From contig NZ_CP034549.1 of the NCBI RefSeq assembly GCF_003966335.1, positions 1,350,001 through 1,382,000 on the forward strand: a DNA stretch of 32,000 nt, written 5' to 3'. The first letter of the stretch is position 1, and every line of letters begins with the position of its first letter. A program made the translations under genes and the position numbers. The stretch comes from Nonlabens ponticola. GTDB lineage: Bacteria > Bacteroidota > Bacteroidia > Flavobacteriales > Flavobacteriaceae. This document shows positions 2,888 through 31,644 of this stretch, in pieces. The notes under the pieces are model-generated. The model did not search any database and was not told the DNA's origin. It was given only the letters and a program-made list of their open reading frames with translations.

Positions 2888-3011
2888 TTTTCAGCATGGA
2901 GCATAGACTTCAGACTTTCAAGTGTCAGGCCGAGCCTGTCGAAGCCGAATCAAATTCTCAAATGTCTTGTCGAGCGTAGTCGAGACCTCTTTTCTTAAAA
3001 CAAATGACTTT

Positions 3012-3047
3012 GCTTTCGCGCCTGCCTGCCGGTCAGGCAGGAAAGCG
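3012..3047. repeat. iterated palindrome copy 3, split by the nested palindrome CCTGCCTGCCGGTCAGGCAGG
   Basis: GCTTTCGCG + 21-nt insert + AAAGCG. Intergenic, 55 nt upstream of the E2 ATG. Confidence 0.9.
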
Positions 3048-3101: not shown

Positions 3102-4463
3102 ATGGCAACAACGACAGATTTCATACTGCCCAAAATGGGCGAATCCATTACCGAAGGTACCATTCTCAACTGGTTGGTTCAAGAAGGAGAATCCTTTATA
3201 GAAGGCGATATACTTGTAGAAGTAGGTACGGATAAAGTGGACAATGAAGTGCCAGCACCTTTCAATGGAGTGATGGTAAAACATCTAGCCAGCGACGGTG
3301 ATGTAGTTGAAATAGGAAAGCCGGTGGCACAGATTGAGGCCAGTTCAGGAGATGCTGCTCAAAAGGTTGTACCAAACGATGATCATCAAGAGATCAAGAA
3401 GCCAGCAGGATTAGAAGATGTTGCGACGGACAAAGATTCCGATAGCCATCAGCAGATTCCGCATCAAGTGCGGAATGACAAGTCTAGATCTAAATCCTCT
3501 TCCGTTTCAAGTTCCTACGTCAACAAAGACCTATTTGTTAGCCCACTAATTGATAAAATCGCAAGGGAAAATCACATCTCGTATGAAGAACTTGCAAGAA
3601 TTCCAGGTTCAGGAAACGAAGGAAGATTGCGCAAGAGTGATGTTATTCAATATCTTAAAGACGGAAGGCCTCACCAATTTGCCCAACCAGTAAGTGCAGA
3701 GCCAGACCCAACGGCTTACCGTATACCGCAATTAAAACTTGACAAAGGAACTGGCAGGATTGTAGAGATGGACCGCATGCGATCCATGATCGCAGATCAT
3801 ATGGTTTACAGCAAGCATACGAGTCCGCACGTGACGGCATATGTCGAGGCAGACCTTACCGATTTAGTTAAATGGCGCAACGCCAATAAGGCCGCTTTTC
3901 AAGAAAAACACGGCGAGCGATTGACTTTTACACCATTGTTTGTCGATGCAGTAGCAAAGGCAATTAAAGAATATCCAAATATCAATGCCAGTGTTGATGG
4001 CAAGAAAATCATTATCAAAGAAAATATCAATGTAGGGATGGCAACTGCATTGCCTTCAGGAAACTTAATCGTTCCTGTGGTAAAAAATGCAGATCAAAAA
4101 ACCTTGCCACAAATCGCAGCAGATGTCAACCGCATGGCAAATCTCGCTAGAGAAAATAAATTGGGCGGCGATGACATCAAAGGCGGAACTTTTACTATTT
4201 CAAATGTTGGAACCTTCGGTTCGTTAATGGGTACACCAATTATCAATCAGCCTGAGGTTGCCATATTGGCCACTGGAATTATCAAAAAACGCGCTGAAGT
4301 AATCACGAGAGATGGTGAAGACAAAATAGAAATTAGGAGTATGATGATGCTTTCCTTATCGTTTGATCATCGAGTAGTGGATGGATTTTTAGGAGGATCA
4401 TTTTTGAAGCAGGTGGCTGATAATTTGCAGCAAATTCCTGCCTACGCAGGAATCTCAGACTAA
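3102..4463 (+). CDS. 2-oxoacid dehydrogenase E2 component (dihydrolipoamide acyltransferase, probably branched-chain type)
   Basis: 453 aa. N-terminal lipoyl domain (VEVGTDKVDNEVPAP), a long charged linker, and a peripheral subunit-binding domain (SPLIDKIARENHISYEELARIPGSG). The catalytic domain ends with SLSFDHRVVDG. Confidence 0.9.
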   Translation: MATTTDFILPKMGESITEGTILNWLVQEGESFIEGDILVEVGTDKVDNEVPAPFNGVMVKHLASDGDVVEIGKPVAQIEASSGDAAQKVVPNDDHQEIKKPAGLEDVATDKDSDSHQQIPHQVRNDKSRSKSSSVSSSYVNKDLFVSPLIDKIARENHISYEELARIPGSGNEGRLRKSDVIQYLKDGRPHQFAQPVSAEPDPTAYRIPQLKLDKGTGRIVEMDRMRSMIADHMVYSKHTSPHVTAYVEADLTDLVKWRNANKAAFQEKHGERLTFTPLFVDAVAKAIKEYPNINASVDGKKIIIKENINVGMATALPSGNLIVPVVKNADQKTLPQIAADVNRMANLARENKLGGDDIKGGTFTISNVGTFGSLMGTPIINQPEVAILATGIIKKRAEVITRDGEDKIEIRSMMMLSLSFDHRVVDGFLGGSFLKQVADNLQQIPAYAGISD

Positions 4464-4464
4464 A

Positions 4465-4875
4465 ATGTACCAACTCATGGATTCAACACCTACTTTTCAC
4501 GTCTACATTATGACAAATAAAAAAGATGGTGCTCTATATATTGGATATACCAGCGACATTGAGTCACGAGTGATCGAACTTAAAACCAAATTGAATCCAA
4601 AATCCTTCACTGCAAAATACAATTGTGACAAGCTGGTTTATCTTGAAGAGCACCATACTCGAGCCACTGCAGAAAAACGAGAATCTCAGATGAAGAAATG
4701 GAAAAGAGAATGGAAAATAGAATTAATCGAGAAGTTAAATCCTGAATGGATGGATGTCGCGATGAATTGGTCGACTGATAGTCACATCACTTTAAAAAGT
4801 AAACGAATTAAAGCATCTATAGATTACTATAAGGACATTGGTAATCTAGATGTATGGGAAAGCACCGCATTATGA
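4465..4875 (+). CDS. GIY-YIG nuclease family protein (COG2827/UPF0213-like) with a non-conserved C-terminal tail
   Basis: 136 aa. FHVYIMTNKKDGALYIGYTSDIESRV then KLVYLEEHHTRATAEKRESQMKKWKREWKIELIE matches the small GIY-YIG family pattern. The ORF starts 1 nt after the E2 stop, and its TGA overlaps the E1 ATG (ATGA). Confidence 0.8.
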   Translation: MYQLMDSTPTFHVYIMTNKKDGALYIGYTSDIESRVIELKTKLNPKSFTAKYNCDKLVYLEEHHTRATAEKRESQMKKWKREWKIELIEKLNPEWMDVAMNWSTDSHITLKSKRIKASIDYYKDIGNLDVWESTAL

Positions 4876-6968
4876 GCAACAATCAACGAGATTCCCACTT
4901 TCGTGGGAATTTAGGAACAGCATACCGTAATCTAACCACCGCCAAAGCAATGGCCGAACTCTACGAGGAAAACTTTAAGCAGGTTTCCAAGTACGTTCAC
5001 GCCACAAGCCGCGGCCACGAGGTCATTCAGACTGCTGTAGGCATGCAGCTATTGCCACAGGATTATGCGTTTCCTTACTATAGAGACGACGCTATGCTCT
5101 TGGCTATAGGAATGAAGCCGTATGACTTGATGCTGCAATTGCTAGCAAAGAAAGCTGATCCATTTTCTGGCGGTCGTACTTATTACTCACATCCATCATT
5201 AAAGGATGATGACAAGCCTAAAATACCGCATCAATCCAGTGCTACTGGTATGCAGGCTATTCCTGCAACGGGTGTGGCAATGGGAATGTGGTACAAGGAA
5301 AGCCTCAATGAGGAACAGAAAGAGATGCTGAAACAAGTTCAGCATGACAGCAATGACGGTGTTGTCGTCTGTTCCCTAGGCGATGCGTCCGTTACCGAAG
5401 GCGAGATTGCTGAGGCCATGCAAATGGCCGCACTCAAACAGTTGCCTATTCTTTATTTGGTGCAGGATAATGGCTGGGACATTAGTGCCAATGCAGCCGA
5501 AACCAGAGCTCAGAACGCTGCCGAGTATGCGGCAGGTTTTCACGGCATCGAGGCGATTTCTATTGATGGAACTGATTTTGAGCAGAGCTACAACACGATC
5601 AATGAGGTCATAGAAAAAATCCGTAAGGAGCGCAGGCCATTTTTAGTACACGCGACCGTTCCCTTATTGAATCACCATACCAGCGGCGTGCGCATGGAAT
5701 TTTATCGCGATGATTTGGAAGAATCTCGAGAGCGCGATCCATATCCTAAAATGAGGCAATTACTTCTTGACAATGGCTTTACTGTGCAGGAACTTGATGA
5801 TTATGACGCTTTCGCGAAAGCGGAAACACAAAAAGCTCTACAACAAGCGACAGAAATGCCCGATCCAGAGCCAGCGGACTTGTTCACGCACGACTTTGCA
5901 CCAACACCAATAACTGAGGAGCGCGGCGAGCGATCGCCAGCAGGTGCAGAAAAAGTGGTGATGGTAGATTGTGCGCTATTTGCCATAGAAGAATTGATGC
6001 GTAAACACCCAGAATGTTTGCTGTACGGTCAAGACGTTGGTGGTAGATTGGGCGGCGTTTTTAGAGAGGCAGCAACGCTGGCACAGAAATTTGGTGACAA
6101 TAGAGTATTCAACACACCCATCCAGGAAGCATTTATCGTGGGTAGCACGGTAGGAATGAGCGCGGCAGGTTTGAAGCCCATCGTTGAGGTACAGTTTGCC
6201 GACTACATCTGGCCTGGTTTGAACCAATTATTTACTGAGGTTTCCAGGTCATGCTATTTAAGTAACGGTAAGTGGCCTGTATCCATGATATTGCGTGTAC
6301 CGATAGGCGCATATGGATCTGGTGGGCCATATCATTCCAGCTCTGTAGAAAGTGTGATTACCAATATTAGAGGTCTTAAAATCGCCTATCCATCCAACGG
6401 TGCCGACTTGAAAGGCTTGATGAAAGCTGCTTATTATGACCCGAATCCAGTAGTGATCTTTGAACATAAAGGATTGTACTGGTCAAAAGTCAAAGGAACC
6501 AAAGGAGCAACCAGTATCGAACCTAGCGAGGATTATGTATTGCCTTTTGGTAAGGCTTGGGTGTTGCAGGAAATCTGGAAAAAGGAAGAAGAGGAAACCT
6601 TGAGCATTATCACCTATGGAATGGGCGTGCACTGGGCCATGAACGCTACGGCAGAACTTGGTTTACAGGATAGAGTAGAAGTAGTAGACTTGAGAACGCT
6701 GCATCCGCTGGATTATGATACGGTTTTTGCCAGCGTTAAGAAATGCGGTAAATGTCTTGTAGTTACTGAAGAGCCCAGCGATAACGGATTCTCTAGAGGC
6801 CTGCAAGGTCGTATACAGGAAGAATGCTTCAAATATCTGGATGCACCAGTAATGATCATAGGTTCTGAAAATATGCCTGCTATACCACTTAATTCAGTTC
6901 TTGAAGAAACGATGATACCTAGTACTGAGAAAGTGAAAGTGAAGATTCAAGAGGTGTTGAACTATTAA
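4872..6968 (+). CDS. fused E1 alpha/beta subunit of a 2-oxoacid (branched-chain-type) dehydrogenase, thiamine-diphosphate dependent
   Basis: The ORF is open from 4854. ATG at 4872 is preferred because it overlaps the upstream stop as ATGA. The N-terminal half is E1-alpha-like (SLGDASVTEGE, YLVQDNGWDIS). The C-terminal half is transketolase-pyrimidine/E1-beta-like (NTPIQEAFIVG, VEVQFADYIWP). Confidence 0.9.
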   Translation: MSNNQRDSHFRGNLGTAYRNLTTAKAMAELYEENFKQVSKYVHATSRGHEVIQTAVGMQLLPQDYAFPYYRDDAMLLAIGMKPYDLMLQLLAKKADPFSGGRTYYSHPSLKDDDKPKIPHQSSATGMQAIPATGVAMGMWYKESLNEEQKEMLKQVQHDSNDGVVVCSLGDASVTEGEIAEAMQMAALKQLPILYLVQDNGWDISANAAETRAQNAAEYAAGFHGIEAISIDGTDFEQSYNTINEVIEKIRKERRPFLVHATVPLLNHHTSGVRMEFYRDDLEESRERDPYPKMRQLLLDNGFTVQELDDYDAFAKAETQKALQQATEMPDPEPADLFTHDFAPTPITEERGERSPAGAEKVVMVDCALFAIEELMRKHPECLLYGQDVGGRLGGVFREAATLAQKFGDNRVFNTPIQEAFIVGSTVGMSAAGLKPIVEVQFADYIWPGLNQLFTEVSRSCYLSNGKWPVSMILRVPIGAYGSGGPYHSSSVESVITNIRGLKIAYPSNGADLKGLMKAAYYDPNPVVIFEHKGLYWSKVKGTKGATSIEPSEDYVLPFGKAWVLQEIWKKEEEETLSIITYGMGVHWAMNATAELGLQDRVEVVDLRTLHPLDYDTVFASVKKCGKCLVVTEEPSDNGFSRGLQGRIQEECFKYLDAPVMIIGSENMPAIPLNSVLEETMIPSTEKVKVKIQEVLNY
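4891..4910. repeat. 8-bp-stem hairpin ATTCCCAC-TTTC-GTGGGAAT just downstream of the GIY-YIG stop
   Basis: A perfect inverted repeat, read directly. It lies in codons 7-13 of the E1 gene (DSHFRGN). There is a single copy in this window. Confidence 0.7.
5807..5822. repeat. iterated palindrome copy 4 (exact 16-mer)
   Basis: Inside the E1 alpha/beta CDS. Reads DAFAKAE. Confidence 0.95.
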
Positions 6969-8122: not shown

Positions 8123-8137
8123 CGCTTTCGCGAAAGC
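8123..8137. repeat. iterated palindrome copy 5 (CGCTTTCGCGAAAGC, left flank TTA)
   Basis: Intergenic, between the DUF5522-like stop and the DUF4136 start. Confidence 0.95.
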
Positions 8138-10868: not shown

Positions 10869-11815
10869 CTTGGAATCTAATATTTGAACCTCAAGACTCC
10901 ATCAATCAATTATTTAAAGATATTGGTGACACTCGCATCAATATAAAACGTGATGATTTATTACACCCTAGTGTATCGGGCAATAAACTGCGCAAGCTCA
11001 AATACAACCTAAGGGATTTCTTAAATTCGGATAAGAGCGCCGTGTTAACTTATGGCGGTGCGCATTCAAATCATATTGCAGCAACCGCTGCGGCAGGTCA
11101 ACTATTAGGAATACAAACAATCGGTGTTATACGAGGAGAAGAATTAGCTCATGACATCGAGAAAACCTTACAACATAATAGCACTCTCAGGCTTGCCCAT
11201 GACAAGGGTATGAAGTTGCATTTTATGGATCGTGAATCCTATAAACACAAGAATGCTCAAATAGTGCAAAACAGATTAGTAGAAGAGCATGGTAACTACT
11301 ACGACATTCCCGAAGGCGGCACAAACGATCTAGCCATAAAAGGAACCGCCCAGATCTTAACTGAAAATGATAAAAACACCTACCAAATAATTGCCGTGGC
11401 GGCTGGTACCGGTGGTACCGCAGCTGGAATTATCGAATCTAGCAGTTCTAATCAATTTGTGTTCGTTTTTAGCGCTTTGAAGGGCGATTTTCTCAAGAAG
11501 GAGATTTCAAAATATACTAGGCGCACCAATTTTGAGGTAGTGAGTGAGAATACATTTGGTGGTTATGCACGATCTAATGATGTGTTGATTAGTTATATGA
11601 ACGTTAGCTTTCGCGAAAGCGGAATTCCTCTCGATCCTATCTACACGGCAAAGATGATGTACGGTCTAGAACTGCTGATTCAGCAAGGTGTCATTAGCAG
11701 TAAAACTCGTATTTTAGCGATTCATACGGGCGGTTTACAAGGCATCAAAGATTACAATGCCATGCTGCTTAAAAAAGGTCGCATCACGATTGATTATGCA
11801 AGTGAGATTCTATAA
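10865..11815 (+). CDS. PLP-dependent 1-aminocyclopropane-1-carboxylate deaminase / D-cysteine desulfhydrase family protein
   Basis: 316 aa. GNKLRKLKYNL (candidate PLP lysine), YGGAHSNHIAATAAAG and AAGTGGTAAG are typical of this fold-type II family. Confidence 0.8.
   Translation: MTWNLIFEPQDSINQLFKDIGDTRINIKRDDLLHPSVSGNKLRKLKYNLRDFLNSDKSAVLTYGGAHSNHIAATAAAGQLLGIQTIGVIRGEELAHDIEKTLQHNSTLRLAHDKGMKLHFMDRESYKHKNAQIVQNRLVEEHGNYYDIPEGGTNDLAIKGTAQILTENDKNTYQIIAVAAGTGGTAAGIIESSSSNQFVFVFSALKGDFLKKEISKYTRRTNFEVVSENTFGGYARSNDVLISYMNVSFRESGIPLDPIYTAKMMYGLELLIQQGVISSKTRILAIHTGGLQGIKDYNAMLLKKGRITIDYASEIL
11607..11621. repeat. iterated palindrome copy 6 (GCTTTCGCGAAAGCG)
   Basis: Inside the ACC-deaminase-family CDS. 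Reads SFRES. Confidence 0.95.
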
Positions 11816-15236: not shown

Positions 15237-16928
15237 TTATAACACCTCAATAAACAAACCGTCATCGGTTTTACTGACCTTGGCGACTTTCTTGCTTGTT
15301 AGTCCTTTTACAGCCTTATCCCATTTTTTATTGGATAATCCTGATTCTGCTTTTAGGTCATTCAGGTCAGCTTTTTGATGTTTTTTGAGTCTTTCAAATA
15401 CTACTTTTTCATCCTCATTGAGCTCCACGCCAGCTTTTTTCTCTGGTCGCATTTGTGGGAAGAACAACACTTCTTGAATCGACGGATTATTGGTTAGGAA
15501 CATAATCAAGCGATCCATACCTATTCCTAGTCCTGAAGTTGGTGGCATACCATATTCCAGCGCTCTCAAGAAATCCTGATCAATAAACATAGCCTCGTCA
15601 TCACCACGATCTGCTAGTGCAGCCTGCGCTTCAAAACGCTCACGTTGATCGATAGGGTCATTCAACTCAGTATAGGCATTAGCGATTTCCTTACCGCAAA
15701 CCATGAGTTCAAAACGCTCTGTCAAATTAGGATCGTCCCTATGTGATTTACACAACGGGCTCATTTCTTTGGGATAATCTGTAATGAAAGTCGGTTGGAT
15801 AAAGTTGCCTTCGCATTTCTCACCAAAGATCTCGTCAATCAACTTGCCTTTCCCCATGGTTTCATCTACGTCGATTTGTTGCGCTTTCGCGAAAGCGTAC
15901 AACTCTTGCTCACTTTTACCCGTAATGTCAAAACCAGTGTATTTGATGATCGCATCAGTCATGGTCACACGTGGGTACGGTGCTTTCCACTCAATCTCAT
16001 GCTCACCAAAAGTACTTGTCGTCTTACCATTCACCTTTACCGCACAGTGCTCCAGCAGGTTCTCGGTAAACTCCATCATCCAGTTGTAATCCTTGTAGGC
16101 TACATAGATTTCCATCGCGGTAAATTCTGGATTGTGCGTGCGGTCCATACCTTCATTCCTGAAGTTCTTGCTGAATTCATACACACCATCAAAACCGCCC
16201 ACGATCAAACGCTTCAGGTACAACTCATTGGCAATACGCATATATAGCGGTATGTCTAGCGAGTTGTGGTGCGTGATAAAAGGTTTGGCCGCGGCGCCAC
16301 CTGGAATGGGTTGTAGGATAGGAGTTTCAACCTCAAAATACTCACGATTGTTGAAGAATGAACGCATGGCGTTGAAAAGCTTGGTGCGCTTGACAAAAAC
16401 TTCCTTCACATCTGGATTGACCACAAGATCTGCATAGCGCTGGCGATAGCGCATTTCTGGATCATTAAACTCGTCGTATGTATTTCCATCAGCATCTGTT
16501 TTAGGTAATGGCAGTGGTTTTAATGCCTTGCTCAACAACTCAAAGTTCTTGACCATGATAGTTTGCTCGCCTACCTGCGTGGTAAAAAGCTCGCCTTCAA
16601 TACCTATAAAATCACCTATGTCTAGTAATTTTTTATAGACCTCATTATATAATGTTTTATCATCATCAGGACATATCTCGTCACGATTAAAATAGACCTG
16701 GATTCTACCGGTGCTGTCCTGCAACTCTGCAAACGATGCCTTTCCTTGAATACGTCTCGACATCAATCGTCCAGCTACAATTACCTTTTTTTCTTCTTGA
16801 AAATCAGCTTTGATGGACGCCGCAGTCGCATCTACATGATATTGCGCCGCTGGATATGGATTGATTCCCATCTCACGCAATTTGTCTAGTTTATCTCTTC
16901 TTACGATTTCCTGTTCAGAAAGTGGCAT
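15237..16928 (-). CDS. lysS: lysine--tRNA ligase (class II) with Bacteroidota-type C-terminal extension
   Basis: The ORF is open to 16967. ATG at 16928 (MPLSEQEIVRRDKL) fits the LysRS N-terminus. Class II motifs: FRNEGMDRTHNPEFT, ELMVCGKEIANAYTELNDP and GLGIGMDRLIMFLT. Confidence 0.93.
   Translation of the reverse strand: MPLSEQEIVRRDKLDKLREMGINPYPAAQYHVDATAASIKADFQEEKKVIVAGRLMSRRIQGKASFAELQDSTGRIQVYFNRDEICPDDDKTLYNEVYKKLLDIGDFIGIEGELFTTQVGEQTIMVKNFELLSKALKPLPLPKTDADGNTYDEFNDPEMRYRQRYADLVVNPDVKEVFVKRTKLFNAMRSFFNNREYFEVETPILQPIPGGAAAKPFITHHNSLDIPLYMRIANELYLKRLIVGGFDGVYEFSKNFRNEGMDRTHNPEFTAMEIYVAYKDYNWMMEFTENLLEHCAVKVNGKTTSTFGEHEIEWKAPYPRVTMTDAIIKYTGFDITGKSEQELYAFAKAQQIDVDETMGKGKLIDEIFGEKCEGNFIQPTFITDYPKEMSPLCKSHRDDPNLTERFELMVCGKEIANAYTELNDPIDQRERFEAQAALADRGDDEAMFIDQDFLRALEYGMPPTSGLGIGMDRLIMFLTNNPSIQEVLFFPQMRPEKKAGVELNEDEKVVFERLKKHQKADLNDLKAESGLSNKKWDKAVKGLTSKKVAKVSKTDDGLFIEVL
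15882..15897. repeat. iterated palindrome copy 7 (exact 16-mer, right flank TA)
   Basis: Inside lysS (minus strand). Reads YAFAKA. Confidence 0.95.
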
Positions 16929-17022: not shown

Positions 17023-17037
17023 CGCTTTCGCGAAAGC
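17023..17037. repeat. iterated palindrome copy 8 (CGCTTTCGCGAAAGC)
   Basis: Intergenic, about 95 nt upstream of the lysS start. Confidence 0.95.
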
Positions 17038-18170: not shown

Positions 18171-19259
18171 ATGACATTGACACCAGAACAAATACGCGAG
18201 GCACTGACCCAGCCTGAAATGGCCGCACACCTAGCAGATCTGGTGTACATTCAAGATGAGCACCTGAGCATTCATCGCAAGAAACACGGTCGTGGTTTCA
18301 CCTATCTTATCAACAATACAGAGAGAGTTAAGGATAAAGAAGAACTCAAGCGTATCAAGTCGCTGGTAATACCGCCAGCGTGGCAAGATGTGCGTATCTC
18401 CAGTGTGGCAAACGGTCACTTGCAATCTGTAGGTCGTGATGACAAAGGCCGCAAGGTGTATAGATATCATGATTTGTGGAGTCTTCTAAGAAACCAGACA
18501 AAGTTTTTTAAGATGTCCGCTTTCGCGAAAGCGTTACCCAAAATAAGAAAGCGATTAGAAAGTGACCTAGCATTAAAAGGAATGCCTCGTGAAAAGTGTC
18601 TAGCGCTGGTAGTGACTGTTATGGATCTAACACACATACGTGTTGGCAATCAATATTATGCGCGCAAAAACAAAACTTATGGACTCTCTACCCTACGCAC
18701 TAAGCATGTAGAAGATGATGGTGACGGCGTGACCTTTAATTTTAAGGGTAAAAAGGGCGTGCAGCAATCACACACCATTACTGATGAAGAAATCGTAGAG
18801 CTAATACACCAGTGCGAGGAAATTCCGGGTTGGGAATTGTTTCAATATATCGATAAAGATGGATCGCATCATGGTATCGATAGCGGTATGATCAATGATT
18901 ATATTCATGAGGTTGCTGGTGATATTTTTAGCGCCAAGGATTTTAGAACTTGGGGCGCGACCACTACTTTTTTTGAGAAGATGCTGGAATTGCCAGTGCC
19001 AGAAACAAAGAAACAACGCGATAAAAATATGCTAGAAGGATATGATGCTGCTGCAGAAGAATTAGGAAACACACGCAATGTGTGTCGTCAATATTATGTG
19101 CATCCTGAGATTCCCAATGTGTACGAAGAGGAAGATAAATTTGAGCAGTACCGTAAAAAGGTAAAAGATTATAACGACTACAAACGCTTCACGGCAGCCG
19201 AGCGTTGCGTGCAGGAAATCATTGAGAACTTTGAGATCGAGTTCAAGCTGGAAGATTAA
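18171..19259 (+). CDS. bacterial type IB DNA topoisomerase (poxvirus-like)
   Basis: 362 aa. IPPAWQDVRIS, GRDDKGRKVYRYH, IRVGNQYYARKNKTYGLSTLR, KDFRTWGAT and the C-terminal VCRQYYVHP (catalytic Tyr context). Confidence 0.85.
   Translation: MTLTPEQIREALTQPEMAAHLADLVYIQDEHLSIHRKKHGRGFTYLINNTERVKDKEELKRIKSLVIPPAWQDVRISSVANGHLQSVGRDDKGRKVYRYHDLWSLLRNQTKFFKMSAFAKALPKIRKRLESDLALKGMPREKCLALVVTVMDLTHIRVGNQYYARKNKTYGLSTLRTKHVEDDGDGVTFNFKGKKGVQQSHTITDEEIVELIHQCEEIPGWELFQYIDKDGSHHGIDSGMINDYIHEVAGDIFSAKDFRTWGATTTFFEKMLELPVPETKKQRDKNMLEGYDAAAEELGNTRNVCRQYYVHPEIPNVYEEEDKFEQYRKKVKDYNDYKRFTAAERCVQEIIENFEIEFKLED
18518..18533. repeat. iterated palindrome copy 9 (exact 16-mer)
   Basis: Inside the topoisomerase IB CDS. 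Reads SAFAKAL. Confidence 0.95.
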
Positions 19260-21761: not shown

Positions 21762-22367
21762 TTATAATGGCAGTTCAAGTTGTTCTGGTAGTAATTTAAA
21801 GGTCATGCGGTGATAATCTGTCGTACCGTGATCGCGTATCGCTTGTCTATGTCGCATGGTTGGGTAACCCTGATTATTACACCAGTCATATTGTGGAAAT
21901 TCCTGATCTAGCTGTTGCATGAGCGCATCGCGATGTGTCTTGGCTAGTATGGATGCCGCGGCAATATGCAAATACTTACCATCGCCCTTTATGACAGTAG
22001 TATGATTGATGCCAGGATATGCTTTGAATCTGTTACCATCAACTGCAATATGTTGAGGTTCAATTTTTAATCCTTTGACGGCTTCATGCATGGCTTGAAT
22101 ACTCGCATTGAGGATATTTATTTGTTCAATCACCCGCATGTCCACATGAGCCACATGGTAGGCAATGGCCTCTTTCTCTATAATAGTTCTTAGTTGGTTT
22201 CTACGCTTTCGCGAAAGCTTCTTACTATCATTCAACGCTGCACATTTAAAATCTTGTGGTAGAATCACGGCTGCCGCAGTCACAGGGCCAGCGAGGCAAC
22301 CACGTCCAGCCTCGTCAGTACCGCACTCAATAATATCAGGATATATTTGTGGTAGGAGCATATTCAA
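21762..22367 (-). CDS. rnhB: ribonuclease HII
   Basis: 201 aa. GTDEAGRGCLAGPVTAAAVIL, LNDSKKLSRKRR, ILNASIQAMHEAV, VDGN and ASILAKTHRD match RNase HII throughout. Confidence 0.92.
   Translation of the reverse strand: MNMLLPQIYPDIIECGTDEAGRGCLAGPVTAAAVILPQDFKCAALNDSKKLSRKRRNQLRTIIEKEAIAYHVAHVDMRVIEQINILNASIQAMHEAVKGLKIEPQHIAVDGNRFKAYPGINHTTVIKGDGKYLHIAAASILAKTHRDALMQQLDQEFPQYDWCNNQGYPTMRHRQAIRDHGTTDYHRMTFKLLPEQLELPL
22204..22218. repeat. iterated palindrome copy 10 (CGCTTTCGCGAAAGC)
   Basis: Inside rnhB (minus strand). Reads KLSRKRR within the conserved DSKKLSxKRR segment. Confidence 0.95.
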
Positions 22368-25812: not shown

Positions 25813-26103
25813 GTGTCTATCATCAAAAAATACGCTTCATTAGTATTACTGCTGCTCTTTCTAGGAGTGCAGGCAACTTCTTTGCACGGTTTTTCTCATG
25901 AGGATGATGACACTTCATGTGAGCTATGTCTTGTAGTTCAAAATTTTCAGGAAGAAGAGTTTACGGGTCAAGATGCGATTATAATAGCACCACCAGTAAT
26001 GATTCTTGTAAGTGTTGAGGTTGGTGATCATTACGCTTTCGCGAAAGCGGAATCCCAACCAACTTTCTACCCATCACGGCCACCGCCGTTTACCCATAGT
26101 TAG
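25813..26103 (+). CDS. small membrane/secreted protein with HxxSHEDDDxxCxxC motif
   Basis: The track ORF starts at TTG 25777, inside the upstream terminator's T-tract. In-frame GTG at 25813 gives (M)SIIKKYASLVLLLLFLGVQATS, then LHGFSHEDDDTSCELC. The start is uncertain. It contains an iterated-palindrome copy, read YAFAKA. Confidence 0.45.
   Translation: MSIIKKYASLVLLLLFLGVQATSLHGFSHEDDDTSCELCLVVQNFQEEEFTGQDAIIIAPPVMILVSVEVGDHYAFAKAESQPTFYPSRPPPFTHS
26034..26049. repeat. iterated palindrome copy 11 (exact 16-mer, left flank TTA)
   Basis: Inside the small His/Cys protein ORF. Reads YAFAKA. Confidence 0.95.
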
Positions 26104-26153: not shown

Positions 26154-28610
26154 ATGTTTTTAAAAAATATCGTGGTAATTGTCCTTTTATCGGCAATTAC
26201 CGCAACGGCTCAGGACTGTCGCATACAGTTAAAAGGTGTCGTTACTGATTTTCATGACGCAGCGCCACTAGAACTCGCTCAAGTTTACATTAAGGAAGCA
26301 GGAAAAACCGGCACCACTAATGAACTAGGTGAGTACCAGATCAAGAACCTGTGTGCAGGTGATTACACGGTTGTAGTGACCCATTTTTCTTGTGAGACAA
26401 AGACGTTGAATCTTAGTTTGAGACGTGATATGACTTATAACGTCAAGCTAGAACATCATATCAATGACTTAGAGCAAGTAGATATTCTAGCAGATGTTCA
26501 CGATAATCATGACCAGACGCAGTCTAGTACACGTGTAGATCAGGAGACCATTAATAAATATAGTGGTGCAACATTAGGCGACGCGCTCGCGACTGTGCAA
26601 GGTGTATCAGCGCTCAAGACAGGCAATAGTGTGGTAAAGCCAGTTATTCATGGTGTTTACGGTAGTAGAGTAACTATAGTAAATAATGGTTTAAGGCAAC
26701 AGGATCAGGAATGGGGTCTAGAGCATTCACCTAATATTGATGTGAACACCGCAGCAAATATTGAAGTTGTAAAAGGTGCAACGGCCTTGAGGTATGGTGG
26801 CGATGCCATTGGTGGAACGATTATTATTGAACCAGAGCGTTTCCTGGCTATGGACACCTTGAAAGGCAAACTCATAAGCCAACTGCAATCAAATGGTCGT
26901 GGTGGTAGCCTCACAGGAACTATTGGGAACTATAATAATAGTGGCTGGTACCAGCGTGTAACATTGACCGGTAAGCGATTGGGTGATTATGAAGCACCAG
27001 ATTATGTCTTGAGTAATACAGGTGAGCAAACCTTCTCAGGTAACCTCGCGGTAGGGTACCAGCAATTTGAGTACGGTGGTAGCATCAATTACTCCTATTA
27101 TAATACAGAGTTGGGAATCCTGCGTGCATCGCATATAGGTAATAGTACCAACCTTGTAAGATCTATAAACTCTGGTCAGCCTAATATTGTACGGGATTTC
27201 ACCTATGATATCGATCCACCTAAACAGCAGGTAGAACATCATGGATTACAGCTTAAAGGCTTCAAGCGTTTTGCAAATCTGGGAAAACTCGAGGTAGATT
27301 ATGCGTTTCAATTTAACAATAGGCTAGAATTTGACATACGTCGTGGTGCTAACGCTGGTCGTGCATCGCTGGATCTTGACTTGACGACACACACGCTGGC
27401 GGCATACTTACTGGTAGATTCGTTAGAAGATATAGAGTTGGAACTAGGTGTGGACGGTTTGCATCAAATCAACGAGCCTAATCCAGCTACTGGCATACGT
27501 CGATTGATACCAGATTATGATAGCCAGAAGATAGGTGGTTTTATCAGTGCCAATAAAAGATTCCATTCTAAGTGGCTTGTAGATGCTGGTGTGAGATATG
27601 ATTTATATCGTATCGCTGCACAAAAGTTTTATCAGTTATCGCGCTGGGAAGACTTGGGCTATGACGAGCAATTCCCACAATTCGAGGTGCGAGAAACAAG
27701 TACTCAGATATTGACAAATCCTGAGTTTGATTACAGCCTACTGGCTTTCAGTGCAGGTGTCAAATACTTTGTGGATGACCATTATGACTTTGCGATTAAT
27801 TTGAGTAGTGCCAGTCGAGCGCCTAATCCTAGTGAACTCTTCAGTGATGGGTTGCACCACGCACTGGCGACTATAGAATTGGGCCAGCTCGATTTAAGAA
27901 AAGAACGATCGTATAAGCTGAACTTGACGGCCCATGCTGGTAAAGGTGGTTTTAACGCCGTTGATATCGAGGTCAACCCTTATTTAAGTTTAGTAAAAGA
28001 CTACATACAATTAGTACCGATTGGGTTGGAAACGACTACAAGAGGTGCATTTCCAGTGTATCAATATGAGCAGGTAGATGCTTTGCTAGCTGGTGTCGAT
28101 GTAGGTGCCTCATGGGACATCGTTTATACTGAGCTTGTGGATCCTGAAGATCCAGATGGTAACCCAGAGCTTTTTGAATCCTTGAGACTCAACTCAAGAT
28201 TTTCTTACATCTATGGCGAGAATACAACAGACGATGAACCGCTCATACTCATACCGCCTACACAATTTTACAATGAATTGGTCTGGAGCAATGGAATTAT
28301 CGATAATCTAAGTTTTACACTGGCTAATCAATCAGTACTTACACAGACTCGATTTCCTGATGATGATTACGAAGTCAATATACCGGATGATCAGGGAAAT
28401 TTTCAAACGGTTACTGTGGAAATAAGTGAAGCACCTAGTGGTTTTTCCTTGTGGAATGCTGGTGTCAGTTACGCTTTCGCGAAAGCGCAATTAAACCTGC
28501 GCGTAAACAACTTATTGAATACCAATTATAGAAACTATCTCAACAGGCAACGCTTTTATGCAGATGACATAGGGCGTGATTTTCAATTACAATTCATCTA
28601 TAACTTTTAA
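26154..28610 (+). CDS. TonB-dependent outer-membrane receptor with N-terminal carboxypeptidase-regulatory-like domain
   Basis: 818 aa with a signal peptide. CarbopepD_reg-like segment: LKGVVTDFHDAAPLELAQVYIKE then GEYQIKNLCAGDY. Plug motifs: ATLGDALATVQGV, VIHGVYGSRV and IEVVKGATALRYGGDAIGGTI. The barrel ends with FQLQFIYNF. Confidence 0.9.
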   Translation: MFLKNIVVIVLLSAITATAQDCRIQLKGVVTDFHDAAPLELAQVYIKEAGKTGTTNELGEYQIKNLCAGDYTVVVTHFSCETKTLNLSLRRDMTYNVKLEHHINDLEQVDILADVHDNHDQTQSSTRVDQETINKYSGATLGDALATVQGVSALKTGNSVVKPVIHGVYGSRVTIVNNGLRQQDQEWGLEHSPNIDVNTAANIEVVKGATALRYGGDAIGGTIIIEPERFLAMDTLKGKLISQLQSNGRGGSLTGTIGNYNNSGWYQRVTLTGKRLGDYEAPDYVLSNTGEQTFSGNLAVGYQQFEYGGSINYSYYNTELGILRASHIGNSTNLVRSINSGQPNIVRDFTYDIDPPKQQVEHHGLQLKGFKRFANLGKLEVDYAFQFNNRLEFDIRRGANAGRASLDLDLTTHTLAAYLLVDSLEDIELELGVDGLHQINEPNPATGIRRLIPDYDSQKIGGFISANKRFHSKWLVDAGVRYDLYRIAAQKFYQLSRWEDLGYDEQFPQFEVRETSTQILTNPEFDYSLLAFSAGVKYFVDDHYDFAINLSSASRAPNPSELFSDGLHHALATIELGQLDLRKERSYKLNLTAHAGKGGFNAVDIEVNPYLSLVKDYIQLVPIGLETTTRGAFPVYQYEQVDALLAGVDVGASWDIVYTELVDPEDPDGNPELFESLRLNSRFSYIYGENTTDDEPLILIPPTQFYNELVWSNGIIDNLSFTLANQSVLTQTRFPDDDYEVNIPDDQGNFQTVTVEISEAPSGFSLWNAGVSYAFAKAQLNLRVNNLLNTNYRNYLNRQRFYADDIGRDFQLQFIYNF
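28472..28487. repeat. iterated palindrome copy 12 (exact 16-mer, left flank TTA)
   Basis: Inside the C-terminal barrel strands of the TonB-dependent receptor. Reads YAFAKA. Confidence 0.95.
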
Positions 28611-31442: not shown

Positions 31443-31602
31443 AATTTTGGAAAGTAGAGTGTTTTTGGCTTTTTAAAGTCAGTAAATTACTACGTGACTG
31501 TTTTGATTTGCGTTAAGGCTTTCACAGAATTTGTTGAACCACGTGCAGTAAGAAATATGACTATTCCTGCATATTTTATGAGTAAAGTAGTTTTCATGAT
31601 TA

Positions 31603-31637
31603 CGCTTTCCTGCCTGCCGGCAGGCAGGCGCGAAAGC
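31603..31637. repeat. iterated palindrome copy 13, split by the nested perfect palindrome CCTGCCTGCCGGCAGGCAGG
   Basis: CGCTTT + 20-nt insert + CGCGAAAGC. Intergenic, 8 nt downstream of the cry-DASH stop. It is the reverse complement of copy 3 except for one extra T in copy 3. Confidence 0.9.
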
Positions 31638-31644
31638 AAAATTA

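Follow-up and report, generated by a model that had tools for sequence, protein, structure and literature searches.

A GC-rich 20/21-nucleotide palindrome nested in an iterated 14-mer of Nonlabens ponticola as a candidate minimal mobile DNA element

In a 32,000-nucleotide (nt) stretch of the Nonlabens ponticola genome (contig NZ_CP034549.1, positions 1,350,001 to 1,382,000; hereafter the window), an abundant short palindrome, the 14-mer GCTTTCGCGAAAGC, is interrupted at two distant places by a second, GC-rich palindrome of 20 or 21 nt (the 20/21-mer). The 20/21-mer is probably an independent, very small and non-autonomous mobile hairpin, which inserted into two pre-existing 14-mers without target duplication, and it may rank among the smallest mobile DNA elements known. 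The parts of the two composites are as follows.

3012 to 3020, plus strand: left part GCTTTCGCG of the first split 14-mer; intact 14-mer at the orthologous place in loci L121, L122 and L123 of related species
3021 to 3041, unstranded: 21-nt variant of the GC-rich palindrome, CCTGCCTGCCGG-T-CAGGCAGG; an insertion relative to the three related species
3042 to 3046, plus strand: right part AAAGC of the first split 14-mer, read from the sequence
31604 to 31608, plus strand: left part GCTTT of the second split 14-mer, read from the sequence
31609 to 31628, unstranded: exact 20-nt perfect palindrome CCTGCCTGCCGGCAGGCAGG; identical sequence in at least 120 species genomes
31629 to 31637, plus strand: right part CGCGAAAGC of the second split 14-mer, read from the sequence

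Composite 1 (3012 to 3047) thus reads GCTTTCGCG + CCTGCCTGCCGGTCAGGCAGG + AAAGCG and composite 2 (31603 to 31637) CGCTTT + CCTGCCTGCCGGCAGGCAGG + CGCGAAAGC, at the places and with the sequences that an earlier, sequence-only reading had reported. Deleting the 20- or 21-nt insert regains the exact 14-mer at both loci, and the two loci are mutual reverse complements except for the extra T at 3033, again as reported. That reading had also put the break at one and the same point; the junction is indeed common to both, with a 1-nt ambiguity owing to a shared G, the insert following either nt 9 or nt 8 of the 14-mer. On its minus (coding) strand, composite 2 runs GCTTTCGCG, insert, AAAGC, in the same order as copy 1. 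Both composites are intergenic and lie by the genes named before, composite 1 at 54 nt before the start codon of E2, in the likely 5' leader, and composite 2 at 7 nt past the stop of a cry-DASH-type gene on the minus strand, between two photolyase-family genes.

The window holds one exact 20-mer, against none in shuffled sequences, and the 21-mer is a second copy. The 14-mer sites cover about 0.5% of the window, and double nesting at a common junction would be expected by chance with a probability of about 4e-6, that is (156/32000)^2 x 2/13 for 12 14-mer sites with 13 internal junctions each among 32,000 positions. As a single strand the 14-mer forms a hairpin, and in both composites, read on the locally transcribed strand (plus for copy 1, minus for copy 2), the insert separates its loop (CGCG) from its 3' arm (AAAGC). 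With two cases, this shared position on the transcribed strand may be a coincidence.

The direction of the event can be read upstream of E2, where the spacer that separates E2 from the hexapeptide-transferase gene keeps its synteny in N. marinus (L121), which is the nearest named relative with 84% amino-acid identity in E2, in Nonlabens sp. (L122) and in N. agnitus (L123). In all three species the orthologous place holds an uninterrupted 14-mer, that of L122 differing by one substitution, followed by the same AAAGCGAATTCCAACACAATCTTC... as in the window. Relative to them, the window has 21 extra nt and zero duplicated target bases, and no 20-mer was found in 128 kb of the three relatives. Because the site is intact in the relatives and filled in the window, the 14-mer is the older of the two, and the GC-rich palindrome was inserted after the species diverged. 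Judged from this alignment, copy 1 clearly arose in place by a clean 21-nt insertion. The comparison with empty sites proposed in the sequence-only reading applies to copy 1, whose site is empty in three related species, copy 2 being not comparable.

Two further observations concern the same spacer (window 2888 to 3010; L121 9708 to 9930; L122 9751 to 9930). It contains the modules GTCAGGCYGAGCCTGTCGAAGCCGA and GTCGAGCGTAGTCGAGAC, which are common across species, and in L122 a tandem heptamer array, (GAGTTCA)x7, whose counterpart in the window is only CTTCAGACTTTCAAG.

The common junction would also follow if the 35-nt composite had arisen once and then spread as a unit, or had converted a second 14-mer by short-patch gene conversion, so that the junction reflects common descent. 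The two copies do have identical junctions and share seven of nine upstream bases (AATGACTTT vs AATAATTTT), and whatever process keeps 14-mers identical genome-wide could copy an insert too. Against this, the 14-mer that hosts copy 1 is conserved between orthologous loci together with its surroundings, the two copies share no related flanks past 9 nt, and the inserts themselves differ, a 21-mer with T facing a 20-mer; the same T variant as at 3021 to 3041 occurs independently in L039, L229 and L241. Moreover, among more than 330 copies of the 20/21-mer examined in the matches listed, no second composite with the junction of the window was found. We consider this explanation unlikely. The earlier proposal of the composite as a dispersed unit fails on the same absence among the copies listed and on the formation of copy 1 in place.

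Nesting in the 14-mer was sought beyond the window in a metagenome scan built to catch composites, which accepted any 20/21-mer within 9 nt of GCTTT and returned mostly chance neighbours among the matches listed. Among these matches was one further true composite with the 14-mer, in a metagenome contig (L211), with the junction after nt 12 (GCTTTCGCGAAA^GC). The only other one seen comes from the genome set described below, in Dokdonia (L027), with the junction after nt 3 (GCT^TTCGCGAAAGC). Together with the window, they make the 14-mer a repeated host of the 20/21-mer in Flavobacteriaceae, with a junction that varies across taxa. In the genome set, sampled without bias, 122 of 123 copies of the 20/21-mer lie in contexts unrelated to the 14-mer. 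The suggestion that the 20-mer targets the first palindrome is thus borne out in two respects, the earlier presence of the 14-mer and the same junction in both window copies, and is too narrow in a third, since insertion is not specific for the 14-mer. The sequence-only reading had also held that a 20-mer found mostly by itself elsewhere would speak against site-specific nesting. The 20-mer is formally of that kind; as the solo-rich genomes are without the 14-mer, this does not refute a local preference within the Nonlabens genome. Part of what recurs from site to site is geometrical, namely a position in a hairpin loop or at its edge; the site sequence does not recur.

The 20/21-mer exists independently of the 14-mer. 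One genome per species (596 Gb) was scanned for the 20-mer with one optional extra base next to the central CCGG, and an exact 20/21-mer was present in at least 120 species genome stretches, against about 0.5 that a random 20-mer would give in a set of this size. More than ten phyla share the identical sequence, its carriers including Patescibacteria, Omnitrophota, Planctomycetota, uncultured Gamma- and Deltaproteobacteria, Nitrospirota, Chloroflexi, Elusimicrobia and many Bacteroidota, and among cultured organisms Winogradskyella, Flagellimonas, Flavivirga, Longitalea, Aquiflexum, Agriterribacter and Aestuariivivens. No cyanobacteria were found among the genome matches listed. Since most carriers have a G+C content of 31–50%, where the expectation is far below one, a chance origin is excluded for them, and shuffling controls gave zero. 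Chance would supply a few copies in genomes of 65–70% G+C, and several 21-mers in high-GC viral contigs are merely homologous coding stretches. An assembly or adapter artefact is countered by the presence of the sequence in cultured isolates and in a 2.87-Mb contig, and by filled and empty sites between species and within one contig. Chance or artefact as a general explanation is therefore, in our estimation, extremely improbable.

Almost everywhere, the flanks of the 20/21-mer differ from copy to copy. The contexts that do recur are other hairpins, mostly in or beside the loop, arrays of heptamers, the 20/21-mer itself and fragments of tRNA genes. Hairpin hosts include L097 (cccggtttc^gaaaccggg), L079 (atccccgtatacg^cggggat), L024, L012 and L030; self-nesting of the 20-mer is seen in L023, L049 and L218, and insertion into tandem heptamers in L053 (ttcgtca^ttcgtca), L098, L101 and L260. 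The identical heptamers that flank several copies had brought up a 7-bp target duplication, which was rejected as a rule, since heptamer arrays pre-exist at those places and the window site has no such duplication. A single contig (L283 and L294) contains a hairpin repeat, CCCCATCCTTGCGGTTTTTG^CAAGGGTGGG, in four empty and three filled copies; all three filled copies have the insert at the loop/3'-stem junction, the geometry of GCTTT-CGCG^AAAGC in the window. In the genome set, 24% of 20/21-mers lie in or at the edge of a hairpin loop with a stem of at least 5 bp, as compared with 11% of random positions. General hairpin targeting as a rule was rejected, the enrichment being only twofold and absent in the metagenome set preselected for adjacent GCTTT.

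Insertion into genes differs between the two forms. In the genomes of L001 to L120 with G+C below 0.5, 13 of 81 20-mers (16%) and nine of 17 in-frame 21-nt variants (53%) lie in long open reading frames (ORFs), against 78% of random positions in both cases. The 20-nt form avoids reading frames and the 21-nt form does so much less, as would be expected if in-frame insertions in genes were tolerated. Copies are also frequent near tRNA genes, with 8.9% of 20/21-mers, vs 2.8% of random positions, at most 300 nt away. The same loci yielded three exact and seven one-mismatch extra copies that had not been selected for, which indicates that the family decays like ordinary DNA around its consensus.

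This decay bears on the possibility that the 20-mer is made anew at each site by templated or self-templated repair, for example by an enzyme that carries its own template and adds CCTGCCTGCC to both ends of a break, which are then joined. Such synthesis would account for a perfect palindrome of two identical 10-nt halves, for the missing target duplication, for the position of the extra base of the variants next to the central CCGG, and for identity across phyla with no recurrent transposase nearby. On the other hand, one-mismatch copies and at least one compensated variant, CCTGCCTACCGGTAGGCAGG of L313, exist and recur within contigs (for example CCTGCCTACC.. twice in L105), much like descent with modification, and no candidate polymerase or template was found; we regard repair synthesis as quite improbable. 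Clustering of 5,409 ORFs within 1.5 kb of 20/21-mer copies gave no recurrent transposase family, and returned only phage structural genes of related high-GC viral contigs and lineage-specific unknowns. Likewise, there was no sign of a phage vector in 65 viral stretches with the 20/21-mer, many of which are high-GC coding matches.

Two larger repeats that contain the 20-mer were seen alongside. In one metagenome contig (L245, 427 to 3993; L138), unrelated small genes form a one-strand array that resembles an integron cassette array, with a 218-nt repeat between the genes; three of five repeat copies have the exact 20-mer at the same point and one has a mutated version. A conserved element of at least 50 nt, GTCTTGAGTGCAGGAGCA[20-mer]AAAGCAAAAAGTGTGACAAACAACT, occurs in L129, L143, L145, L146, L171, L173 (two copies) and about ten more metagenome contigs of one uncultured lineage (G+C 0.34–0.43), where it is repeated within contigs and adjoins ORFs without a Pfam match.

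As RNA, the composites are predicted to form bulged hairpins of −24 to −26 kcal/mol (z = −3.4 to −5.4), in agreement with the fold proposed from the sequence. So very stable a hairpin could serve as a signal in RNA or DNA (terminator, mRNA-stabilizing or processing hairpin, or protein-binding operator) that selection keeps wherever it lands, with its spread secondary. The location of copy 2 at 7 nt past a stop codon and of copy 1 in the likely E2 leader would suit such a role, and in the cassettes described below a 20-mer placed 18–50 nt before a nuclease start would suit autoregulation. Yet neither composite has a T-tract or a terminator call, the window has no Rfam match, and three related species are without the hairpin at the same genes, so that it is not needed there. 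Placement in tRNA fragments, in heptamer arrays and in the element itself fits a selfish element better. We therefore judge a selected signal improbable; the composite in the window is without a demonstrated function of its own.

The 20-mer is regularly associated with tRNA-linked cassettes that encode small GIY-YIG nucleases. Their architecture is a partial tRNA copy split by the 20-mer, an ORF of 80–90 amino acids of the GIY-YIG family on the same strand, and then the same tRNA intact, as seen in L044, L160, L301, L314–L320 and L326. All loci taken together have 11 small GIY-YIG ORFs, four of which have a 20-mer no more than 65 nt away, L119 being a fifth, incomplete case; uniform placement would give about 0.016 per ORF and hence about 3e-5 for four of 11. 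Cassettes found via the 20-mer are listed first, and after them those from a small protein-side test of five cassettes, for which loci were chosen with a profile of the GIY-YIG subfamily among proteins outside the 20-mer-selected loci.

L044, tRNA-Lys: cassette in a curated complete WWE3 genome, found via the 20-mer
L301: cassette in a viral contig, found via the 20-mer
L160, tRNA-Gln: insert in the anticodon loop, found via the 20-mer
L119: start of the GIY-YIG ORF beyond the locus end, found via the 20-mer
P0339 (seven places shown, ten contigs), tRNA-Asn: TTCCGCGATAGCTCAACGGTA + exact 20-mer + GAGCAGC..., ORF, intact tRNA-Asn
P0359 (Dokdonia), tRNA-Arg: GGCCTCGTAGTTCAACTGGATA + exact 20-mer + GAATATCAGA, ORF, intact tRNA-Arg
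L313, 3' part of a tRNA: three variant hairpins beside the GIY-YIG gene, including the compensated CCTGCCTACCGGTAGGCAGG
L327, tRNA-Arg: intact tRNA, ORF, related CCTG..CAGG hairpin, duplicated 3' end of the tRNA
P0301 loci, tRNA-Arg: mirror arrangement as in L327

On the protein side, the exact 20-mer accompanies two of the five genes (P0339 and P0359), in both of which it sits in the duplicated 5' fragment of the tRNA, and related CCTG..CAGG hairpins accompany the other three; a hairpin of this type within or beside a partial tRNA copy was present for all five protein-selected genes. The corresponding scan of viral contigs gave two loci only. In seven tRNA fragments (L019, L044, L104, L119, L301, L314 and L326) the insertion point is where the D-loop meets the 3' strand of the D-stem, or at most 2 nt inside, and in the GIY-YIG cassettes the 20-mer ends 18–50 nt upstream of the nuclease start codon. 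The profile of the cassette proteins matches UPF0213 proteins (1zg2, 1ywl) and then the structure-specific endonuclease SLX1, and no NCBIfam model was found for the family. One search with the subfamily profile returned more than 7,000 proteins, in Patescibacteria, Omnitrophota, Bacteroidota and WOR-3.

Some tRNA loci show additional peculiarities. The 'intact' tRNA copy after the ORF in L301 (820 to 990) is broken in the anticodon arm, right after GGTTGGCT, by a structured-looking insert that may be a group I intron; ARAGORN called no tRNA in this interval. In L287 (2239 to 2330) and L179 (1357 to 1450), ARAGORN called over-long tRNAs of 92–94 nt into which the 20-mer is apparently inserted, in L287 between the variable loop and the T-stem.

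These associations point to a mechanism by which the 20/21-mer could be mobilized in trans by a structure-specific GIY-YIG nuclease of the Slx1/UPF0213 type. The small nuclease would recognize the palindrome or its extruded hairpin, and recognition by a conserved protein would explain the identity of the sequence across phyla. Where single-stranded or cruciform DNA exposes other hairpins, it may also nick these at the loop/3'-stem junction, and the break would be repaired with a copy of the 20-mer hairpin. The architecture of the cassettes fits integration of a small circle by crossover within nt 1–22 of the tRNA, or homing. We tentatively propose, at rather less than even confidence, that the 20-mer is the cognate hairpin of these nucleases of 80–90 amino acids, that the two together form a selfish tRNA-targeting cassette found in many bacterial phyla, and that the solo copies, which number in the hundreds and include those of the window, are non-autonomous derivatives placed in trans at hairpin loop/stem junctions with no duplication of the target.

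Several points weigh against a mobile hairpin moved in this manner. Coverage of the source genome is the 32-kb window, and the counts of composites apply to it. With two copies, the identical junction could also come from one composite converting another 14-mer. At copy 2 there is no comparable empty site, as in the relatives the spacer that separates the cry-DASH-type gene from the DPRP gene has been rearranged: it holds a reverse-strand ORF of 65–66 amino acids, apparently for a membrane protein, and no 14-mer (L124 9638 to 9835, L125 9546 to 9746, L126 9640 to 9837), whereas the window (31443 to 31644) has a shorter, unrelated spacer that bears the composite and no reverse ORF. In the genome set, 62% of solo copies lie in no recognizable hairpin (77% of random positions, stem of at least 5 bp), and structure-directed targeting is a tendency, not a rule. 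The 32-kb window contains no tRNA gene and no gene of the tRNA-linked GIY-YIG subfamily, both of its copies being solo; its one GIY-YIG ORF belongs to another subfamily and is 1.4 kb away. The relatives carry GIY-YIG genes yet no 20-mer. Finally, we know of no GIY-YIG nuclease that inserts DNA at non-homologous sites.

The GIY-YIG ORF of the window (4465 to 4875, 136 amino acids) lies between the E2 and E1 genes. Since three relatives have only a spacer of about 40 nt with a GCCGC...GCGGC hairpin between E2 and E1, this ORF is itself a cassette insertion. Its flanks (4436 to 4457 and 4893 to 4912) are the hairpins ATTCCTGCctacGCAGGAAT and ATTCCCACtttcGTGGGAAT, the former of which recasts the C-terminus of E2 as ...IPAYAGISD*.

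The host palindrome is a repeat of another kind. The window has ten exact copies and one one-mismatch copy of the 14-mer, about one per 3 kb, against none in shuffled sequences; eight of these 11 (with the one-mismatch copy counted) lie inside ORFs, in all three frames (AFAKA, FRES, LSRK). The copies, all unstranded, are:

2219 to 2232: intact 14-mer, end of the peptidase S41 gene, reading ...AFAKA*
2505 to 2518: one-mismatch 14-mer GCTTTCGTGAAAGC, inside the hexapeptide-transferase gene
5808 to 5821: intact 14-mer in the E1 gene (AFAKA), orthologous codon in four Nonlabens species
8124 to 8137: intact 14-mer, intergenic
11607 to 11620: intact 14-mer within an ORF, in the frame reading FRES
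15883 to 15896: intact 14-mer within a minus-strand ORF (AFAKA)
17024 to 17037: intact 14-mer, intergenic
18519 to 18532: intact 14-mer within an ORF (AFAKA)
22205 to 22218: intact 14-mer in the RNase HII gene, encoding part of the conserved DSKxLSRKRR
26035 to 26048: intact 14-mer in a short ORF upstream of the TonB-dependent receptor gene
28473 to 28486: intact 14-mer in the TonB-dependent receptor gene (YAFAKAQ), orthologous in four species

Three other Nonlabens genomes (six 21-kb loci) have 7–8 exact 14-mers per locus, and the copies in the E1, RNase HII and TonB-receptor genes are at orthologous codons in four of four Nonlabens species. As the RNase HII copy encodes a conserved stretch, copies there are maintained sequence and not insertions. 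No exact intact 14-mer was present in the 120 unrelated genome stretches examined. The 14-mer behaves as a highly iterated palindrome, old and maintained across Nonlabens: it is far above chance, occurs in coding and non-coding DNA and keeps orthologous sites, as palindromes of the HIP type do. Its flanks often extend towards ATTACGCTTTCGCGAAAGCGGAAT, and each of its strands contains GCGAAAGC, which is known as an unusually stable DNA mini-hairpin. Its core TCGCGA is a known restriction-site sequence; in HIP1, the core is recognized by a cognate methyltransferase.

To our knowledge, there is essentially a single precedent for mobile repeats of about 20 nt, from one family of cyanobacteria, and it comes with no known enzyme. 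The same behaviour is seen here in a flavobacterium, with precise nesting in a hyper-abundant palindrome, self-nesting and embedding in heptamers. The element keeps one and the same sequence in more than ten phyla, and at tRNA genes it is physically linked to a very small gene for a nuclease of the structure-specific type; this wider, cross-phylum phenomenon is apparently undescribed. If the link to the nuclease is real, it becomes testable how 20-nt elements move, why an uncharacterized but very common family of small GIY-YIG proteins exists, and whether iterated palindromes such as HIP1 and the 14-mer form hairpins in the cell. The 20/21-mer would then be the smallest mobile DNA with an identifiable protein partner, and the 20-mer a probe for palindromes, the Nonlabens 14-mer for example, that extrude as hairpins in vivo. 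There are practical consequences as well: spurious ORFs (LPAGRQ-type peptides) arise from the 20/21-mer, tRNA-like sequences that it splits are overlooked or wrongly called by tRNA finders, and its 21-nt form can enter genes in frame.

Neither the 14-mer nor the 20-mer sequence was found in the literature searched for them, and the cassettes may have been described before. Among known systems, REP elements are imperfect palindromes, species- or genus-specific, with hundreds of copies per genome. They are tagged by GTAG or CGTC (PMC3733652). The 20/21-mer resembles REPs, BIMEs and REPINs as a short, GC-rich, extragenic and dispersed hairpin presumed to be mobilized in trans; it differs in that the 20-mer is a perfect palindrome, starts with CCTG, is without GTAG or CGTC, occurs about once per 8-kb stretch sampled and is identical across phyla. 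No recurrent HUH/RAYT gene was seen among the 5,409 ORFs near its copies. It is set apart from MITEs by the missing target-site duplication in the comparison of filled and empty sites, and from intrinsic terminators by the missing T-tract of the GC-rich hairpins of the window.

Mobile GC-rich clusters of mitochondrial genomes can lie in genes and in each other. In fungi and algae, they are short GC-rich palindromes scattered through AT-rich genomes (PMC7218506, PMC4524435). They differ from the 20/21-mer in being organellar, longer or more variable and lineage-specific, with no nuclease cassette that carries the same palindrome. The cassettes themselves recall SegB of phage T4, a free-standing GIY-YIG homing endonuclease whose gene lies in a tRNA gene cluster, in that a small GIY-YIG gene is lodged at a tRNA gene. 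In contrast to Seg proteins and Slx1, the cassette proteins have only 80–90 amino acids and consist of nothing but the catalytic domain; in the cassette, a partial duplicate of the tRNA gene has a fixed 20-nt palindrome inside it, and solo palindromes, such as both copies in the window, which stand apart from any tRNA-linked cassette, are dispersed elsewhere. We know of no such features for Seg proteins or Slx1.

A nearer likeness is offered by the small dispersed repeats (SDRs) of the Nostocaceae, about 20–27 nt long and described by Elhai et al. in 2008 (Genome Res 18:1484), of which SDR5 lies in HIP1; SDR copies are reported to be nested in themselves, set in tandem heptamers and folded as hairpins. 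For SDRs we know of no protein partner, whereas the 20/21-mer has a candidate one in the GIY-YIG cassette. The host palindromes differ too, the 14-mer of one flavobacterial genus standing in place of HIP1, and the listed hosts of the 20/21-mer are non-cyanobacterial and span phyla. SDRs are reported as confined to Nostocaceae (PMC5861425). Judged by the hosts, membership of the 20/21-mer in SDR1–8 in the strict sense is unlikely. SDR5 is inserted between nt 3 and 4 of HIP1 (PMC4390886; PMC5861425). That point is fixed in HIP1, and the insertion point of the 20/21-mer is the same in both window copies and another in L027 and in L211. By analogy, SDR5 inside HIP1 is the closest known parallel to the nested 20/21-mer: in each case a very small, sharply conserved repeat lies within a hyper-abundant short palindrome, and the 20/21-mer, which is of comparable size and dispersal (20/21 nt, identical in at least 120 genomes), also nests in itself, sits in heptamer arrays and folds as a hairpin.

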